DNA from: Escherichia coli
GTDB taxonomy: Bacteria > Pseudomonadota > Gammaproteobacteria > Enterobacterales > Enterobacteriaceae
Reading direction: 5' to 3' (one strand)
NCBI RefSeq assembly: GCF_002854065.1
Contig: NZ_CP024147.1
DNA: 64,000 bases
The first letter of the stretch is position 1, and the number at the start of each line of letters is the position of its first letter. Position numbers and translations under genes: made by a program. Positions 9,275 through 16,954 of the stretch are shown here, piece after piece. The notes below the pieces were generated by a model, which saw only the letters and a list, made by a program, of their open reading frames with translations, had not been told where the DNA came from and did no database searches.

Positions 9275-9700
9275 ATGAGCAACATCACTATTTATCACAA
9301 CCCAGCCTGCGGCACCTCGCGTAATACGCTGGAGATGATCCGCAACAGCGGTACCGAGCCGACCATTATTCTTTACCTTGAGAACCCACCTTCGAGGGAT
9401 GAATTGGTCAAACTCATTGCCGATATGGGTATTTCAGTACGAGCGCTGCTGCGTAAAAACGTTGAGCCTTACGAGCAACTGGGTCTTGCAGAAGATAAAT
9501 TTACTGACGATCAGCTCATCGACTTTATGTTGCAACACCCAATTCTGATTAACCGTCCGATCGTGGTTACGCCGCTGGGAACCAGACTGTGCCGTCCTTC
9601 TGAAGTGGTTCTGGATATCCTGCAGGATGCGCAGAAAGGGGCTTTCGCTAAGGAAGACGGTGAAAAGGTCGTTGATGAAGCAGGAAAACGGCTGAAATAA
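9275..9700 (+). CDS. arsC: ArsC glutaredoxin-type arsenate reductase (full length, copy 1)
   Basis: MSNITIYHNPACGTSRNTLEMIRNSG... carries the catalytic Cys12. The protein is 141 aa. Confidence 0.95.
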   Translation: MSNITIYHNPACGTSRNTLEMIRNSGTEPTIILYLENPPSRDELVKLIADMGISVRALLRKNVEPYEQLGLAEDKFTDDQLIDFMLQHPILINRPIVVTPLGTRLCRPSEVVLDILQDAQKGAFAKEDGEKVVDEAGKRLK

Positions 9701-9703
9701 ATA

Positions 9704-9727
9704 ATAAGGGGGCGAATGCCCCCTTAT
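9704..9727. terminator. Bidirectional hairpin terminator between arsC and the convergent acetyltransferase gene
   Basis: ATAAGGGGGCGAATGCCCCCTTAT forms a GC-rich 8-10 bp stem flanked by A/T runs. Confidence 0.7.
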
Positions 9728-9734
9728 TCGTACC

Positions 9735-10271
9735 TCAGAGCATCATGCCTGAATCCGATGGTAACGTGCTGTTCCCTTCGCCCAGATTTCGTTGCAGCAA
9801 CACTGTGTCAAGCCAACGACCATGCTTGAAGCCAATATTTTTCAGCGTACCAATCTCAGTAAATCCAACCTGCTGATGGACTTTCAGCGAACCTTGATTA
9901 TTGCTATCGCCGACAATAGCAATCATCTGCCGATAGCCGTGAGTTTCTGCCCAGGCAATGACGTAGCGCAGCAACGCTTTTCCTGTCCCCTGACGCTGTG
10001 CGTCCGGGTGAATATAAATCGAATCTTCGAGAGTGTGGCGGTAGGCGTAGCGTTCACGGTAACGAGTGAGATAACAATACCCGATAACCTTTTCTTCCTC
10101 TAACGCGACAACCCACGGTAGCGCCTGATTGCGGATCTTTTTCAGGCGGGTAAGCATCTCGTGGGTATCCGGAGGTTCAGTTTCAAAGCTGGCGGTACCG
10201 TGAAGAACATGATGGGCGTAGATATCGCGTATAGCGGGGATGTGCTTTTCTTCTGCGTTAACGATTTTCAT
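9735..10271 (-). CDS. arsN: GNAT N-acetyltransferase of the phosphinothricin-acetyltransferase (PAT/MddA) family; ArsN1-like by context
   Basis: IRDIYAHHVLHGTASFETEPP... and QRQGTGKALL...GYRQMIAIVGDSNNQGSLKVHQQVGF resemble PAT/YncA. The gene is adjacent to ars genes. Confidence 0.65.
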   Translation of the reverse strand: MKIVNAEEKHIPAIRDIYAHHVLHGTASFETEPPDTHEMLTRLKKIRNQALPWVVALEEEKVIGYCYLTRYRERYAYRHTLEDSIYIHPDAQRQGTGKALLRYVIAWAETHGYRQMIAIVGDSNNQGSLKVHQQVGFTEIGTLKNIGFKHGRWLDTVLLQRNLGEGNSTLPSDSGMML

Positions 10272-10435
10272 TGTTCTGTTCCCGTTGGCATCTTTTTCAA
10301 GGTTACTTGAAAATCCTGAGGAAAGGTAAATACAAAAGCTTATGACCCAATAAGCAGGCTAATCTTCAATCCCATCTTTTGTTTTCATTCATGCAGGGAG
10401 ACAAATATGTGCTTCCAGTATCCTTATTTTTTATG

Positions 10436-10479
10436 TTACCTTTTCCGTTATGTCTAAAATGACATAACGGAAAAGGTAA
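10436..10479. promoter_or_regulatory. Perfect 19+19 bp palindrome (6-bp spacer) overlapping the ribosome-binding site of the TauE-family gene; candidate operator or RBS-sequestering hairpin
   Basis: The sequence is TTACCTTTTCCGTTATGTC-taaaat-GACATAACGGAAAAGGTAA. It ends 4 nt before the ATG at 10484. Confidence 0.6.
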
Positions 10480-10483
10480 ACCC

Positions 10484-11308
10484 ATGTCCTCAGAATCAAA
10501 ACGGAACGGAAAAGGTTTTTTATCAGGCACGTTAATCGGTGCTTTAGGCGGCTTAATTGGCCTCGGTGGCGCTGAGTTCCGCCTTCCCGTCCTGATGGGT
10601 AGTTTCAAAATGCCGACGCTTGAAGCGGTTATTTTTAACAAAGCGATGAGCCTTACTGTTGTCGCTGTTGCTTTGATATTCCGCACAAAATCCATCGCCG
10701 TCGACCAGCTGTTTGCTCATCTTGATATTGTCATCAATTTGCTGGCCGGGAGCCTTATAGGTGCATGGTGGGCAGCAGGAAGAGCCATAAAAATGTCCCG
10801 TATTTGGCTGGACAGAACCATTCTGCTCCTGCTTGTTATCCTGTCATTCGTCATGTTTTCAGAAGCATTGATGCCTCTGCATGATAGCTCCGCTGGATTA
10901 TTCCAGCCCGGAATCGCGACCATTATTGCGGGTGTTATTGCGGGTGTTATTGCGGGTTTCTTCATCGGGAATGTTGCTGCTTTGCTGGGTGTTGCAGGGG
11001 GAGAGCTCCTGATACCAACTATCGTTATCCTTTTTGGGGCTGACATTAAACTGGCTGGCAGTTTGTCACTCATGATCAGTTTACCGACGATGATTGTGGG
11101 GTTCTCTCGCTACACTAATGCAGATGCTTTCCAGATCCTGAGAAAAGAGAAAAAACTTTTTGTGTGGATGGTCATCGGTTCCGTTATAGGTGCCGCTATT
11201 GGGGGCCTTATGCTCGGTATGTTCCCGGTAAGAGTACTTATGACTCTGTTAGGCGCGGTACTTCTTATTTCCGCGATCAAAACCTTTAAGCATACCCGGC
11301 AAAGATAA
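10484..11308 (+). CDS. TauE/SafE (DUF81) family anion-exporter-like membrane protein
   Basis: The 274-aa polytopic protein has internally duplicated G-rich motifs: GALGGLIGLGGAEFRLPVLMG and LLGVAGGELLIPTIV. Confidence 0.7.
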   Translation: MSSESKRNGKGFLSGTLIGALGGLIGLGGAEFRLPVLMGSFKMPTLEAVIFNKAMSLTVVAVALIFRTKSIAVDQLFAHLDIVINLLAGSLIGAWWAAGRAIKMSRIWLDRTILLLLVILSFVMFSEALMPLHDSSAGLFQPGIATIIAGVIAGVIAGFFIGNVAALLGVAGGELLIPTIVILFGADIKLAGSLSLMISLPTMIVGFSRYTNADAFQILRKEKKLFVWMVIGSVIGAAIGGLMLGMFPVRVLMTLLGAVLLISAIKTFKHTRQR

Positions 11309-11370
11309 TAGCCGTTTACGCTTTGGACTATTCCGCATTACAGAGAAAATGATTTCGAAAAGGTATCAGA

Positions 11371-11739
11371 ATGAAAAAGAATCCCCTTAAATCAAACTTA
11401 ATCTTAGTCAGACCGAGGATCTATATTAACGACAACATCTCGCTGGGGCCGGGGAAGGTTGACCTTTTAAGGGCGATTGATGGCTTTCACTCTCTTTCTG
11501 CGGCAGCTAAAGATTTGGGGATACCTTATAAAAAAGCATGGCTCTTAATTGACACTTTGAATAAAGGGATTGGTCAGCCAGTTGTAACCACTTCCACTGG
11601 TGGTAACAAGGGCGGTGGTACAGTTCTGACGCCATTGGGGCGTAGCCTGCTGATCTGGTATGACCAGGCCGAGGCCCACCTCAATGAGCAATCTCAGCAA
11701 CAGTTAATCGAACTTGAAAAGATTCTTTTTGGAAAATGA
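11371..11739 (+). CDS. ModE N-terminal-domain-like wHTH regulator lacking Mop/TOBE ligand domains
   Basis: SLSAAAKDLGIPYKKAWLLIDTLNKGIGQPVVTTSTGGNKGGGTVLTPLGRSLL parallels ModE SISQGAKDAGISYKSAWDAINEMN...ATGGKGGGGAVLTRYGQRL. The protein is only 122 aa. Confidence 0.7.
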   Translation: MKKNPLKSNLILVRPRIYINDNISLGPGKVDLLRAIDGFHSLSAAAKDLGIPYKKAWLLIDTLNKGIGQPVVTTSTGGNKGGGTVLTPLGRSLLIWYDQAEAHLNEQSQQQLIELEKILFGK

Positions 11740-11784
11740 CAGAGACCTTTGTTATCCATCGGGAAAATAGAGTGACAGCAATGC

Positions 11785-11810
11785 ATGAAGGGGGCTAATG
11801 CCCCCTTCAT
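11785..11810. terminator. Bidirectional hairpin terminator between the modE-like gene and the convergent arsA2
   Basis: ATGAAGGGGGCTAATGCCCCCTTCAT has the same AAGGGGGC-NAAT-GCCCCCTT core as the hairpin at 9704. Confidence 0.65.
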
Positions 11811-11812
11811 TA

Positions 11813-13570
11813 TTACTTCGCCATTTCTTCCAGCAGGTCAATACCAACCGGCTCTTCGCTCTGTAGCGCTGTTAATGCAATACGCTTTGCATACTGCTCT
11901 TCCACATCAGAGATGAGAGGCAGCTCGCGGTTAGCTCTGGTCTTCAGGAAAGGTGAAGACGGCTCAGCAGCTGCCAGGCTGTTATTCACAACCCATGCCC
12001 ACGGCTCAATGCCAGCCCGACGCAGATCCTGCTGCAGGTTAGCGGCTTCCAGTACAGGTGTCGTTTCGGCAAGCGTCACGATAATCACCTTCGTCTTCTC
12101 CGGGTCCTGCAATTGCATCATTGGCGTCATCACATGGTCATGTGTTTGCCCCATCTGGCGCACCATTTCCCGGTGATAGGCTCCAGTCGCATCCAGTAGC
12201 AGAAGTGTGTGACCCGTTGGCGCGGTGTCCATAATGACAAAATGATCGTCTGCCTCTTTGATTATCCGCGAGAATGCCTGGAAGACGGCGATCTCTTCAG
12301 TACATGGTGAGCGGAGATCTTCTTCCAGCACCGCCAGCCCCTCAGCGTCTAATCCTTTGCCCTGATTCTCCAGTACAAAACGGCGATAACGCTCTGTCTC
12401 CACCTTCGGATCGATACGGCTGACCTGCAGATTTGGCAGCGAGCCATCCAGCGTGTAAGACAGATGTGCTGCCGGATCGGACGTGGTCAGATGGACTTTA
12501 TGACCGCGTTTTGCCAGCGATACCGCGACCGATGCTGCAACAGTCGTTTTGCCCACGCCGCCTTTCCCCATCGTCATTACCAGCCCTTTGCCTGTCAGAC
12601 TGAGTTCATCCACTAACGAGGAAAGTTTCGGTAAATCCAGAGCATTTAGCGTTGTATTGGAGAGAGACAGTGGCGCTTTGCTCTCTGTTAATAACTCTCG
12701 CAGGGCTTCCAGACCGACCAGATTAAATGGCTTCAGAGACAGCTGCGAGCGGGGAAGATTAACCAGATTATCAGGCATTGCCTGTAATGCTTTTTCTTCC
12801 CGAGCCAGAATACTTTGCGCCAGTGGATCATTTTCACCGGCAAACGGTGGCAGCACACCATTAATGGCAAGGTGTTGATGCTGCAAACCAATAGCAGAAA
12901 GCTCATCGTGCGTATGAGAAACCTCTTTCAGCGTTGAAGCCTGAGCTCGGGCAACCAGCACTAAGCGTGTGAGAGCTGCGTCGGACAGCGCTTTAACCGC
13001 ATCGGAGTACTGGTGCTGTTGTTTCTCAAGCCCTACCAGAGGTCCAAGGTTTGCAGCGGCATCAGGGTTCGCTTCGAGATAACCGCTCCAGGCTCCCGGC
13101 AATTCAAGCATGCGGATGGTGTGACCGGTTGGCGCGGTATCAAATACGATATGGTCATATTTTCCCCGCAGCTCATGATTGGTCAGCAGACCAGTAAACT
13201 CATCAAACGCAGCGATTTCCGTGGTGCATGAGCCGGAAAGCTGCTCTTCAATGCTGCTGACCACATCGGCTGGCATCAGCCCGCGAACAGGGTCGAGCAC
13301 ACGGTCACGATAGGCTTGCGCTGCAGCCATCGGATCAACTTCCATCGCGGCAAGATTTTCTACAGTACTGATATCTGTGATTCGGTGGCCGATAGTCTGG
13401 CTAAATACCTGGCCGACATTGGAAGCCGGATCGGTACTCACCAGAAGCGTTCTCTTACCCTGATCGGCCAGCCATACTGCAGTAGCACAGGCCAGGGATG
13501 TCTTACCCACTCCACCTTTACCAGTGAAGAAGATGAACGGGGGAATGTCTTTTAAAAATGGCATATTCAT
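11813..13570 (-). CDS. arsA: ArsA-family ATPase, second divergent copy lacking the Cys172 equivalent
   Basis: The protein has two GKGGVGKT / DTAPTGHT halves. SGSCTTE and RSPCTEE are present, but ANPDAAANLGP aligns with [11 protein letters not shown] of copy 1. GAGGAG precedes the ATG at 13570 (MNMPFLKD...). Confidence 0.9.
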   Translation of the reverse strand: MNMPFLKDIPPFIFFTGKGGVGKTSLACATAVWLADQGKRTLLVSTDPASNVGQVFSQTIGHRITDISTVENLAAMEVDPMAAAQAYRDRVLDPVRGLMPADVVSSIEEQLSGSCTTEIAAFDEFTGLLTNHELRGKYDHIVFDTAPTGHTIRMLELPGAWSGYLEANPDAAANLGPLVGLEKQQHQYSDAVKALSDAALTRLVLVARAQASTLKEVSHTHDELSAIGLQHQHLAINGVLPPFAGENDPLAQSILAREEKALQAMPDNLVNLPRSQLSLKPFNLVGLEALRELLTESKAPLSLSNTTLNALDLPKLSSLVDELSLTGKGLVMTMGKGGVGKTTVAASVAVSLAKRGHKVHLTTSDPAAHLSYTLDGSLPNLQVSRIDPKVETERYRRFVLENQGKGLDAEGLAVLEEDLRSPCTEEIAVFQAFSRIIKEADDHFVIMDTAPTGHTLLLLDATGAYHREMVRQMGQTHDHVMTPMMQLQDPEKTKVIIVTLAETTPVLEAANLQQDLRRAGIEPWAWVVNNSLAAAEPSSPFLKTRANRELPLISDVEEQYAKRIALTALQSEEPVGIDLLEEMAK

Positions 13571-13590: not shown

Positions 13591-13953
13591 TTAAGGCATA
13601 CGTGGAATGCTGCAGCAACGCGGTTGCGTACTGTCTTCACTCCAGTCCTGAGTTAGCGGAATATCTGCCCAACGGGCGATATCTTCACGAGTCGGCAGTT
13701 TGCCTGCCATCACCAGCTTGCCGTCGAGCAAGGTGACAGGGAGGGATTCCATCCCTGATGTGTTCATAAACTCTTTGATTACAGGGGTATTCAGGAACTG
13801 CTGCGGGTTTTTCGCAAGGCTGTAGCGCTGAATATCAACGCCATTCTTTTTCGCCCATTCGGCGCTGGCATTCCATTTGACGGCTTCGTCGCTCACCACA
13901 ACGCTGCTGGTTGCGCAGCAGCCTGCTGCTTCAAAGATCTCAATTTTTGACAT
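13591..13953 (-). CDS. arsD: ArsD-family metallochaperone, second divergent copy (Cys12-Cys13 kept, residue 18 is Val)
   Basis: The 120-aa protein begins MSKIEIFEAAGCCATSSVVV. Its thioredoxin-like core aligns to ArsD (LPVTLLDGKLVMAGKLPTREDIARW). The C-terminus is PRCCSIP. Confidence 0.8.
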   Translation of the reverse strand: MSKIEIFEAAGCCATSSVVVSDEAVKWNASAEWAKKNGVDIQRYSLAKNPQQFLNTPVIKEFMNTSGMESLPVTLLDGKLVMAGKLPTREDIARWADIPLTQDWSEDSTQPRCCSIPRMP

Positions 13954-13958
13954 GGATT

Positions 13959-14002
13959 GTTTACCTCAGTGTTTAGTCATTTGGCTTTACACTGAGGTAA
14001 AC
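13959..14002 (-). promoter_or_regulatory. 13-bp perfect stem-loop in the sigma-arsD2 spacer whose 3' arm contains the arsD2 Shine-Dalgarno
   Basis: On the mRNA strand the sequence is GTTTACCTCAGTG-(18 nt)-CACTGAGGTAAAC, followed by AATCC-ATG. No U-run follows. Confidence 0.5.
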
Positions 14003-14028: not shown

Positions 14029-14574
14029 TTAATTCATTTTTTTGTGGCAGCAGACAAAAGATGTGTCATCCGCCTCAATCTGGCAGAGTTCTGTCATCGT
14101 CTCTTTCAGGTGTTTTCTGGCCCGAAGTAGTCGGGATTTAAACGCTGTAAGCGTGATTCCCCATTCATCGGCCAGGGACTGCTGGGGACGCCGGTTAAGG
14201 TCGGACTCTTCAATCAACCACCGCTCATCTTCGGGTAAAGCCTGTAATGTTTCAGGCAGGCAAATATCCAGTGTTGAGATTGCATCAAGGGATGCGTCTG
14301 TTAATAGGGCATCTTCTTCCAGCTCAACAAACGCCCTGGTGGTTCGGTACTCATCAATCAGCAGATTCCTTGCTACCCGATACAACCAGGCTCGCGGATT
14401 TTCCATCTCACAAAAAATGTCTGAATGGGCTCGGGCACGCAGGAAAAGGTCTTGCAGAAGGTCTGCTGCTTTTTCGCTATCGCCTGTCTTCGATATCAGA
14501 AAGCGAGAAAATTCGCCTTCATGCTGCCGCCAGAACACGCTCATACAGCTGTTGAATGCTGTTATGTCACTCAT
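14029..14574 (-). CDS. ECF-type sigma-70 family factor with a C-terminal Cys-x10-Cys-Cys extension
   Basis: Region 2 is DLLQDLFLRA...AWLYRVARNLLIDEYR. Region 4 is LPEDERWLIEESDLNRRPQQSLADEWGITLTAFKSRLLRARKHL. The tail is LCQIEADDTSFVCCHKKMN. The likely ATG is at 14574, 8 nt after the arsH stop. Confidence 0.8.
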   Translation of the reverse strand: MSDITAFNSCMSVFWRQHEGEFSRFLISKTGDSEKAADLLQDLFLRARAHSDIFCEMENPRAWLYRVARNLLIDEYRTTRAFVELEEDALLTDASLDAISTLDICLPETLQALPEDERWLIEESDLNRRPQQSLADEWGITLTAFKSRLLRARKHLKETMTELCQIEADDTSFVCCHKKMN

Positions 14575-14582
14575 ACTAACCT

Positions 14583-15293
14583 TCAAATTTTGCTCTGATT
14601 AACCCGTCGGGAAAGTTCTTCTGCAGACTCTTTTCGTTCACTGTAGCGATCGACAAGATAGGCAGAATTTGCCCGGGTCAACAATGTAAACTTCATCAAT
14701 TCTTCCATCACATCCACGATGCGGTCGTAATATGGTGACGGTTTCATACGTCCATCGTCATCAAACTCCTGCCAGGCTTTTGCTACCGAGGACTGGTTCG
14801 GAATAGTGATCATTCTCATCCAACGACCAAGCACGCGCATCTGGTTGACTGTGTTGAATGACTGGGAACCTCCACACACTTGCATAACAGCCAGAGTTTT
14901 TCCCTGAGAAGGACGAACAGCACCTTCAGATAATGGTATCCAGTCAATTTGTGCCTTCATAATACCAGTCATCGCTCCGTGTCGTTCCGGAGAGCACCAC
15001 ACCATTCCTTCAGACCAGCGGACCAGTTCACGCAACTCCATAACTTTTGGATGTGACTCCGGTGCATCATCAGGAAGTGGAAGGCCAGATGGATTAAAAA
15101 TGCGGACTTCTGCGCCCATCGCAGTTAACAACCGACCAGCTTCCTCTGTCGCCAGTCGACTGTATGAGCGCTCACGAACTGAGCCATAAAGCATTAGTAT
15201 ACGAGGGGGGTGAGATATTGTCGGTATCCCCATTTTTTGCTCAGTTATTGCAGCATCAAATAAATCAGGAACTATATTATTTAGCTTATTCAT
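14583..15293 (-). CDS. arsH: ArsH NADPH-dependent FMN reductase / organoarsenical oxidase
   Basis: [18 protein letters not shown]...[23 protein letters not shown] is typical of ArsH. The protein is 236 aa. Confidence 0.9.
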
Positions 15294-15795: not shown

Positions 15796-15820
15796 GTAGA
15801 TTTTGTCAAGAGGGTTTAGT

Positions 15821-16954
15821 ATGAATAGTTGGATTTCTATGCTGCAAGATGCCGCAGAGATGTTTTTGTTTTTGGCCGTCGAGCTATCTTTGCTGTTTAT
15901 TGTCATCAGTGCCGGTGTGAGCCTGATAAGGCAAAAGGTCCCGGACCATAAAATCCAGCAATTGTTGGGGGCGAAAAAAGGAAAAGGCTACCTGCTGGCC
16001 TCGTTGTTGGGAGCCGTTACCCCTTTCTGTAGTTGCTCAACAATTCCAATGCTACGAGGGTTGTTGTCGGCGAAAGCAGGGTTTGGTCCGACACTCACTT
16101 TTTTGTTTGTTTCACCGTTGCTTAATCCCATTATCGTGGGGTTAATGTGGGTTACCTTTGGCTGGAAAGTAACTTTGTTGTACGCGATCATCGCTGCCGG
16201 TGTCTCAGTCCTTGCCAGTATCGTATTGGATTTACTAGGATTTGAACGTCATATTGTTGATCACAAAAACTCAGCATCAAGTGGTTGCGCCACCAAATGT
16301 GATGATTCCGAAGCTTCGGTAAAAACGTCGGCGGGTTCCAGTTGTTGCAGCACTAGCTCGACTCAATTGCCTGTAAAAACGAGTTGCTGTACTTCATCAG
16401 CGAACCCCATAATTAACTTAAGGACGGTAAAGAACGAGCAGAACGTATCAACGTGTTGTTCATCAATATCATCTGAACAACCAGCTGTTAGCTGTTGCAG
16501 CAGCGAGAATCTGGGCAATGTGAATCTCACACCGAATACCACCTCTGGCCCAATAAAGTTAGCTATGAAAGATGCCTTACAGCAGTTTAAGGATGTTCTG
16601 CCTTATCTTTTGTTAGGTGTATTAATAGGTTCATTTATTTATGGCTTTATCCCTTCAGAGTGGATTGCAGCTCATGCCGGAGCAGATAATCCCTTAGCCA
16701 TACCGCTGAGTGCAGTTGTTGGTATTCCGTTGTATATACGCGCAGAGGCAGTGATACCACTTGCATCAGTGCTGATGACTAAAGGAATGGGCCTGGGGGC
16801 ATTAATGGCCTTGATAATCGGTAGTGCTGGAGCGAGTTTGACAGAAGTAATACTGCTTAAATCAATGTTCAGAATGCCTATGATAGTCGCTTTTCTGACA
16901 GTTATCTTAGGTATGGCAATTCTAATGGGTTATCTGACTCAATTCTTGTTTTAA
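15821..16954 (+). CDS. ArsP-like (UPF0718/DUF318) permease with a Ser/Cys-rich central loop
   Basis: The motif TPFCSCSTIPML lies in an early TM segment and the protein has multiple TM helices. A ~75-aa loop carries GCATKC plus four (S/T)CC(S/T) pairs. The ATG at 15821 is preceded by AGAGGG; the track start at 15803 is a TTG. Confidence 0.7.
   Translation: MNSWISMLQDAAEMFLFLAVELSLLFIVISAGVSLIRQKVPDHKIQQLLGAKKGKGYLLASLLGAVTPFCSCSTIPMLRGLLSAKAGFGPTLTFLFVSPLLNPIIVGLMWVTFGWKVTLLYAIIAAGVSVLASIVLDLLGFERHIVDHKNSASSGCATKCDDSEASVKTSAGSSCCSTSSTQLPVKTSCCTSSANPIINLRTVKNEQNVSTCCSSISSEQPAVSCCSSENLGNVNLTPNTTSGPIKLAMKDALQQFKDVLPYLLLGVLIGSFIYGFIPSEWIAAHAGADNPLAIPLSAVVGIPLYIRAEAVIPLASVLMTKGMGLGALMALIIGSAGASLTEVILLKSMFRMPMIVAFLTVILGMAILMGYLTQFLF

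Follow-up and report, generated by a model that had tools for sequence, protein, structure and literature searches.

A mobile tauE and short-modE gene pair in an Escherichia coli arsenic island is predicted to be controlled by a ModE-type operator at the core of a perfect 44-bp palindrome

In Escherichia coli ModE, molybdate bound at the C-terminal domain reorients the DNA-binding domains (PMC11672702), and the operator consensus published for ModE is ATCGNTATATA-N6-TATATANCGAT (PMC545781). Genes encoding only the DNA-binding part of ModE have been noted in Desulfovibrio, where a different operator, CGGTCACG-N14-CGTGACCG, was predicted and the mechanism of molybdenum sensing was called unclear (PMC545781). 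The TSUP permeases (TauE/SafE, DUF81), for their part, are a poorly characterised family whose characterised members handle sulfite, sulfonates or sulfate (PMC5840216). Here we analyse a stretch of 64,000 nucleotides of E. coli DNA (contig NZ_CP024147.1; hereafter the window) in which a TauE-like TSUP permease gene and a gene for a 122-residue, DNA-binding-only ModE lie behind a perfect palindrome within an arsenic island. The explanation that accounts best for the data overall, and that we consider likely, is that the two genes form a negatively autoregulated operon under the control of a Mo-box. The parts on which this reading depends are the following.

10436-10479, no strand assigned: perfect 19+6+19 inverted repeat (the palindrome), found by direct reading and with a repeat finder; predicted RNA fold of -30.1 kcal/mol, z-score -8.8

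10446-10469, no strand assigned: core of the palindrome, a 24-bp Mo-box-type operator, CGTTATGTC-taaaat-GACATAACG, called from its match to the modA operator and the consensus and from co-occurrence; predicted site of a short-ModE dimer

10436-10445, no strand assigned: left outer arm, TTACCTTTTC, able to pair with 10470-10479 around the ribosome-binding site; lineage-specific

10470-10479, no strand assigned: right outer arm, GAAAAGGTAA, holding the AAGG Shine-Dalgarno sequence (10473-10476)

10484-11308, plus strand: tauE-like gene for a TSUP-family permease of 274 residues (Pfam PF01925, 88.4 bits against a cut-off of 32.6)

11371-11739, plus strand: short modE gene, encoding an N-terminal winged-helix domain only (122 residues; TIGR00637, BLASTP, PDB profile, AlphaFold2/Foldseek)

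A first-pass annotation of the window had described a flawless 19-bp inverted repeat around taaaat that ends 4 nt before the tauE start codon and covers the AAGG with its right arm, and both the repeat finder and the coordinates agree with it: the arms, TTACCTTTTCCGTTATGTC (10436-10454) and GACATAACGGAAAAGGTAA (10461-10479), are 100% complementary on either side of the 6-nt spacer TAAAAT, and 4 nt separate the end of the palindrome from the ATG at 10484. It is the longest perfect inverted repeat of the window, the next perfect repeats having arms of 15 nt. The same annotation had noted that CGTTAT...ATAACG resembles the half-sites of ModE operators, and the likeness extends to the real operator of E. 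coli K-12, which we fetched with the modA upstream region (CGTTATATT-gtcgcc-TACATAACG) and to which the core is identical at 15 of 18 half-site positions in the same 9+6+9 frame. The core also fits the published consensus, with CGnTAT...ATAnCG half-sites and a 6-bp spacer, and lies 14 nt before the tauE ATG, compared with 18 nt between the K-12 operator and the modA ATG. A search of the window for the 24-bp box at no more than 3 mismatches returned this single site, against 0.03 expected by chance.

To relate the box to the regulator, we assembled 83 loci of regulator homologs, 80 from an alignment-based scan with one genome per species and three (L001-L003) from annotated collections, and scored each for CGTTATGTC-N6-GAC(A/C)TAACG at no more than 3 mismatches, with one shuffle per locus as control. 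The Mo-box was present in 62 of the 83 loci, which span many proteobacteria, versus 1 of 83 shuffled sequences, and was nearly always placed 40-70 bp past the regulator stop codon or directly 5' of modA or tauE. The reverse control, comprising six loci recovered through TauE, revealed the box in all three that encode a short ModE (L214-L216) and in none of the three whose tauE-mod genes adjoin a separate Mop protein or regulators of another type (L211-L213). When metagenomes were scanned for the box, most of the 80 matches listed were unrelated chance hits, about 10 adjoined ModE or ModA genes and 3 were the enterobacterial module itself. Across all enterobacterial lineages of the module it is the core alone that is conserved, as sequence, and the flanks diverge. 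Since the core is conserved as sequence and the outer arms vary by paired substitution (see below), the core behaves like a protein-recognition sequence and the arms like a structure-only element, and the palindrome, as judged from this comparison, appears to carry two layers, a 24-bp core and outer 10-bp arms. We regard the prediction that the core is a ModE-type operator as well supported by comparative evidence.

The presumptive reader of this operator had been taken for the ModE N-terminal domain alone, with no Mop or TOBE domain and no obvious sensing domain, and on both counts the annotation stands. The one domain detected in the regulator is the N-terminal repressor domain of ModE (TIGR00637, residues 25-109, E 4.9e-22); neither Pfam nor NCBIfam finds a Mop/TOBE domain in it, and the protein simply stops at residue 122. 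BLASTP aligned it with residues 19-102 of E. coli ModE at 39% identity, and its family profile retrieved 2IJL from the PDB (E 2.8e-29), followed by ModE (1B9M/1O7L). Its AlphaFold2 model, at a predicted local distance difference test (pLDDT) score of 88, was matched best in Foldseek by the same 2IJL, a putative ModE of Agrobacterium tumefaciens (template-modelling scores 0.73/0.81), with E. coli ModE next, and the modelled fold would thus be of the ModE/LysR type and not of the ArsR type. As in ModE, the recognition helix reads YK(R/K)AW and the wing GGxxGGG throughout the family, in which the motifs R14-P15-R16 and G26-P27-G28-K29 are likewise invariant. We rejected the possibility that the gene is a truncated pseudogene, because hundreds of well-conserved homologs at 50-60% identity are spread through Gamma- and Betaproteobacteria and are uniformly about 120 residues long, which makes them a stand-alone family and not a truncation.

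The regulator has the features of a 2IJL-like short ModE, that is, a stand-alone ModE N-domain of about 110-135 residues with a C-terminal helical extension, and in this it resembles the Mop-less proteins of A. tumefaciens and Desulfovibrio. It differs from the latter in that their predicted operator is another one, whereas the 122-residue family co-occurs with the classical Mo-box, and from the former in that the window unit is without modABC. The A. tumefaciens protein, as Hoffmann et al. reportedly described in 2016, regulates modABC, with uptake following the status of the molybdenum cofactor, and indirect control is said to have been proposed. Lacking the di-Mop domain, the window regulator is not a canonical ModE, and molybdate sensing in the manner of E. 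coli ModE is impossible for it; as its translation contains no cysteine, sensing of As(III) or Sb(III) in the manner of ArsR is unlikely as well.

Alternatively, the chromosomal full-length ModE-molybdate of enterobacterial hosts might be the sole user of the box, the 122-residue protein being inert or otherwise employed. The absence of a ligand domain from the short protein would suit such use, as would the 15 of 18 positions shared with the E. coli modA operator and the box variants that adjoin full-length ModE genes in metagenomes (for example at L156). Nevertheless, the box accompanies the short regulator in most of the 83 loci and is missing from tauE-mod operons with other regulators, the ModE recognition-helix and wing motifs are invariant in the short protein, and the gene pair stays joined in every mobile context in which it is found; we hold exclusive use by the host protein to be very improbable.

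The organisation of the two genes is that of a transcription unit. The intergenic gap measures 62 nt in the window and, in other lineages, 6-25 nt; it contains no predicted terminator, and a hairpin follows the second gene.

11785-11810, no strand assigned: GC-rich terminator-like hairpin closing the tauE-modE unit, with an 11-bp stem of which 7 pairs are GC, between the converging modE and arsA2 genes

The position of the box ahead of the pair implies autoregulation, and the autoregulated two-gene unit that had been proposed for this locus is, on these comparative grounds, well supported. Region 10436-11810 is most likely a self-contained mobile operon of Mo-box, tauE and short modE. An island on the chromosome of E. 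coli CUWW06 matches the window at 100% identity, and the same genes are carried by R64 (ycfA, yceA and ycfB in one record) and by many IncI, IncF and other plasmids. The box-tauE-modE unit directly follows arsC in E. coli XJ34 and in Hafnia and K. grimontii plasmids, stands opposite arsN in the window and in R64, adjoins SulP-Usp genes in pEL-ars1 and, on a Klebsiella plasmid, is carried by a Tn3-family transposon; at further sites it lies by resolvase and IS110 genes, between integrase genes, or next to pheT in Providencia. Homology to the window begins about 35-45 nt before the palindrome or, for the Tn3 lineage, precisely where the core itself begins. The pair, whose separation elsewhere had been named as evidence that would tell against the proposed module, is therefore kept together in many unrelated contexts.

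Two of the transposons look like steps in the reduction of a larger cassette: one (L215, 2458-7063) is a Tn3-family element with short-modE, modA, tauE, modB and modC as cargo, and the other, on the Klebsiella plasmid (L090, 2130-7244), is a Tn3-family element that carries only the box, tauE and short modE. In pEL-ars1 (L003, 8660-8760) a fragment of the arsA2 3' end, corresponding to about 11820-11930 of the window, lies upstream and not downstream of the tauE module, which shows that rearrangement has taken place around it.

In a Mo-box-controlled, negatively autoregulated operon of this kind, a dimer of the 122-residue winged-helix protein would bind the two 9-bp half-sites of the core, 14 nt ahead of the start codon and either at the tauE promoter or shortly 3' of it, and binding would repress tauE together with the regulator's own gene. 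Given that the Mop domain is absent, repression would be either constitutive, as a homeostatic autorepression, or indirectly set. In E. coli the full-length ModE-molybdate of the host would probably recognise the same box and thereby add a molybdate response. The outer 10-bp arms would be a later addition in the ars-island lineage and may mask the ribosome-binding site or stabilise the transcript. Such a circuit would share with E. coli ModE and modABCD a 24-bp 9+6+9 inverted repeat with CGTTAT...ATAACG half-sites just 5' of the start of a transport gene, and a homologous DNA-binding domain of what is modelled as the same fold. It differs in four respects: the di-Mop molybdate-binding domain of E. 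coli ModE is absent from the regulator, the target is a TSUP permease and not an ATP-binding cassette (ABC) importer, the regulator gene lies inside the operon that it regulates, and in this lineage the operator forms the middle of a longer perfect palindrome, of 44 bp, that reaches over the ribosome-binding site.

What the permease handles can be approached through its relatives. TauE is carried at 30 of the 83 loci, in most of them as an ortholog (55-86% identity) within about 2.5 kb of the regulator. Orthologs at 55-70% identity are placed between modA and modB in many proteobacteria, the usual order in Beta- and Gammaproteobacteria being regulator, box, modA, tauE, modB, modC; the succession modA-tauE-modB-modC was read directly in the maps of about 8 of the 17 regulator-first loci that have both TauE and mod genes. 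Searching from TauE instead revealed very numerous homologs of 62-70% identity and the same succession in five of six contexts (Azospirillum, a Desulfobulbaceae metagenome-assembled genome, Burkholderia, Vogesella and a Tn3-family transposon), the sixth having tauE divergent from a gene for a 69-residue Mop (TOBE) protein. ModA, ModB and ModC each score above their NCBIfam equivalog cut-offs.

With TauE orthologs embedded in bona fide modABC operons, the substrate points to oxyanions of the molybdate or tungstate type. There is strong association evidence, from gene neighbourhoods, for a molybdate- or tungstate-related role, and we predict that the tauE product most likely moves, or helps to handle, a tetrahedral oxyanion of this type. 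That TauE is encoded together with an importer behind a shared operator speaks against its being a molybdate exporter; a secondary importer, or a protein that exports a competing anion, would suit this arrangement. The window protein shares with TauE/SafE permeases a PF01925 match well over threshold and a polytopic membrane protein of about 270 residues, and its subfamily is set apart from the characterised TSUP members by its place inside Mo-box-controlled modABC operons, a context that would argue against sulfite or an organosulfonate as the substrate. Sulfite-like, molybdate-like and arsenic or antimony oxyanions had all been left open for this module; the idea of an oxyanion is retained, but the three are not equally open, as the context favours the molybdate/tungstate type.

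Two minor features of these genes were also seen. The window tauE contains a tandem duplication that adds AGVI to a predicted membrane helix and accounts for 274 residues versus 270 in R64 and E. coli XJ34.

10923-10957, plus strand: in-frame 12-bp tandem duplication in tauE, 2.9 copies of TTATTGCGGGTG

Soon after the mod genes of four loci (L014, L016, L038 and L216) comes a gene for an SBF/ACR3-like carrier that scores well under the ACR3 cut-off; at L216 (7092-8473) it lies immediately 3' of modC and an EamA-family gene comes next, a hint of a larger conserved cluster for the handling of anions.

We then compared the outer arms of the palindrome among independent lineages of the module and found their complementarity confined to the ars-island lineage. 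The outer 10 nt are non-complementary in the Tn3-linked, Serratia, two Citrobacter, Providencia and Proteus lineages and in plasmid pEL-ars1; these core-only lineages have a free GAGAGG-type ribosome-binding site 3' of the box, and most of them retain one extra T:A pair, as in the classical consensus. In the ars-island lineage the palindrome occurs in three distinct perfect versions, those of the window and of E. coli XJ34 with 19 bp each and that of the Hafnia plasmid with 23 contiguous pairs, which differ by compensating substitutions at arm position 11 (T:A to C:G) and position 15 (C:G to T:A), and the ECOR30 plasmid has a compensated change at arm position 10. Imperfect palindromes occur in R64 and the C. 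arsenatis plasmid, where 6-7 of the 10 outer positions pair and the core contains an A-C mismatch. In an alignment of eight ars-island sequences, all related and one of them the source of the structure, 92.8% of cells are paired and five pairs (9 cells) are changed on both sides, a covariation score reached by 0 of 500 shuffles. All five lie in the outer arm; in the core no pair is changed on both sides, and the differences there amount to a G-U-compatible change plus a few substitutions on one side, two of them pair-breaking.

These changes bear on the alternative that the palindrome acts mainly as an RNA hairpin, its stem sequestering the Shine-Dalgarno sequence and gating translation, with DNA binding secondary or absent. 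Folding predictions place the AAGG of the leader inside a very stable stem, the perfect versions and the covariation are what such a hairpin would leave, two core changes are G-U compatible, and the pairing of an anti-Shine-Dalgarno CCTTTT with the ribosome-binding site beside a covarying outer arm, in the window, XJ34 and the Hafnia plasmid, is that of leader hairpins that sequester ribosome-binding sites. The arms are unpaired, however, in every core-only lineage, R64 itself has the core mismatch and an imperfect outer arm, and the core sequence is kept across proteobacterial classes and tracks the regulator, which is unexpected for a purely structural element. A permanent stem of -30 kcal/mol has no evident opening route: it is far too stable for an RNA thermometer, and it differs from sequestering attenuators in this and in not being kept in other lineages of the module. 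The hairpin would also require a transcript that includes the left arm, and its covariation comes from eight related sequences whose structure was taken from one of them. We therefore think it improbable that the palindrome works mainly as RNA. The first-pass annotation had allowed for an operator, a hairpin occluding the ribosome-binding site, or both; the operator part fits the core, and the hairpin is possible in the ars-island lineage only, as a lineage-specific second layer at best. A scan of 9600-12000 against Rfam returned no family and no Moco riboswitch, the sole match being a chance microRNA hit on the hairpin (E 0.14). We also rejected a terminator, as the stem is not followed by a T-run on either strand.

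Template-switch correction of quasi-palindromes is an established mutational mechanism that copies a mutation from one arm to the other, and it could keep the palindrome perfect while the outer arms are functionless and selection acts on the core operator only. Every both-side change falls in the outer arm, as this would have it, and the R64, C. arsenatis and K. grimontii plasmids and pEL-ars1 have decayed outer arms yet retain the genes. Against it, the complementary stretch coincides exactly with the ribosome-binding site, which looks more than accidental, and in the Hafnia plasmid pairing reaches 23 contiguous pairs, up to the start codon; by sequence data alone the process is inseparable from structural selection. 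We rate functionless arms maintained in this way as possible, though somewhat doubtful.

Upstream of the core, one short element keeps its spacing.

10433-10438, plus strand: (T/A)ATGnT element, 13 nt 5' of the core; the distance from ATG to core is the same in nearly all enterobacterial lineages despite differing surroundings

This element may be a weak -10 hexamer or may supply the ATG of a 9-codon upstream open reading frame. If it were a -10, transcription would start at about 10445 and the long hairpin would be excluded. The ATG at 10433 opens the frame 10433-10462 (MLPFPLCLK in the window), which always stops at a TGA made of the last loop T and the GA of the right half-site and which is without a ribosome-binding site. 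By eye, weak -10 candidates are TATGTT (10433-10438), TATTTT (10425-10430) and the spacer TAAAAT, the last of which is not kept as a -10 in relatives (TTTTTT in pEL-ars1); a good promoter, TATACA-N17-TATCAT, was seen only in the Tn3-linked lineage. A 16-codon upstream frame from 10407 was likewise dismissed, being unconserved in XJ34, where its ATG is ATA and its stop is lost.

Several results weigh against a Mo-box-controlled, negatively autoregulated operon. The regulator scores 77.9 bits with TIGR00637, under the curated cut-off of 98.5, and 21 of the 83 regulator loci are without a box at no more than 3 mismatches. A consensus scan for a sigma-70 promoter around the box found none at the palindrome, and a simple operator model leaves the compensatory outer-arm changes unexplained. 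The searchable literature yielded no binding, expression or transport experiment for the tauE-modE module, indeed no paper on it, and none that ties TSUP, TauE or DUF81 to mod operons. Finally, at least one ars-like neighbour was found at 13 of 30 TauE loci versus 6 of 53 TauE-free loci (Fisher p = 0.002) and, when only non-enteric loci are counted, at 8 of 20 TauE loci versus the same 6 of 53 (p = 0.016), in both cases uncorrected for kinship.

This enrichment, along with the surroundings of the module, raises the question of an arsenic function. That the module sits in an arsenic island was confirmed by ars genes on both flanks: arsD, arsA, arsB and arsC upstream, together with a divergent gene for an ArsN1b-like acetyltransferase, and arsA2, arsD2, a SigZ-like sigma factor gene, arsH, arsR and an ArsP-family permease gene downstream.

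9735-10271, minus strand: GNAT-family gene divergent from tauE, closest to ArsN1 family B (arsinothricin resistance) at 145 bits against a cut-off of 210

TauE might accordingly export an arsenical, an antimonial or a related compound, such as a product of the ArsN-like enzyme, which the regulator would sense. In Enterobacterales the module is most often found within ars islands, its carriers include isolates from antimony and arsenic sites (E. ludwigii Sb-9 and C. arsenatis LY-1), ars neighbours are enriched at TauE-containing loci, and arsN is divergent to tauE in the window and in R64. On the other side, most loci place the ortholog within a modABC operon that has no ars genes in its vicinity, the module also moves without ars genes, and a regulator that has no cysteine to coordinate As(III) or Sb(III) faces an operator that is a Mo-box. 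Several of the ars hits in the neighbour count are single SBF-like genes under the ACR3 cut-off; when two or more ars genes are required, the figures are 9 of 30 TauE loci versus 3 of 53 TauE-free ones. The arsN neighbour is itself unconserved: it stands beside tauE in the window, R64 and related plasmids that carry the same tauE-regulator module, is not at that position in XJ34, the Hafnia plasmid or pEL-ars1, and is elsewhere in the K. grimontii plasmid; on this ground we dropped a functional coupling of arsN and tauE through their shared intergenic region. An arsenic or antimony function thus seems unlikely to us. One simple reading of the enrichment is that mod genes are frequent in the ars islands of environmental proteobacteria and that a remnant persists in the enteric islands. 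From its distribution, the arsenic island appears to be one of several carriers of the module and not its defining context.

The Mo-box, the short ModE and the TSUP permease are each of an already known kind; new are their arrangement, their mobility, the extended palindrome and the link between a TSUP permease and mod operons. We tentatively propose, as a possibility, that the tight TauE-like TSUP subfamily is an unrecognised part of bacterial molybdate/tungstate homeostasis that has been reduced, together with a sensor-less ModE, to a mobile autoregulated cassette. In that case an oxyanion function linked to molybdenum would be part of metal-resistance islands, for instance a secondary carrier for molybdenum or tungsten, or an exporter of a competing oxyanion that shields molybdoenzymes under arsenic, antimony or tungstate stress, and, as the module is frequent in ars islands and transposons, one may ask whether the handling of molybdenum adds fitness under metalloid stress. 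The ycfA/ycfB genes of R64, and the pair annotated as "TauE/wHTH" (winged helix-turn-helix) in dozens of enterobacterial records for plasmids and chromosomes, can now be put to the test as a proposed system of Mo-box operator, short ModE repressor and permease of the mod-operon type, and within the very large and poorly characterised TSUP family a subfamily from molybdate operons offers a defined phenotype to test. The locus is also a compact setting, with one operator, one target and an E. coli host, for the control exerted by a ModE without a molybdate-binding domain, and it joins two constraints in one palindrome, a sequence-conserved core and a structure-only outer arm.

Elsewhere in the island, a 21-nt inverted repeat (13959-14002; 86% complementary, 2-nt spacer) fills most of a 75-nt gap between the gene for a SigZ-like extracytoplasmic-function (ECF) sigma factor (14029-14586, minus strand) and arsD2 (13591-13953, minus strand), and is a possible operator or attenuator of the second arsDA pair. 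The ArsP_1-family permease encoded at 15803-16954, in a gene divergent from the arsR-arsH-sigma operon, has a long Cys/Ser-rich loop with several CC motifs, and its best NCBIfam matches are the SO_0444 Cu/Zn efflux family and SaoE, both far under their cut-offs.

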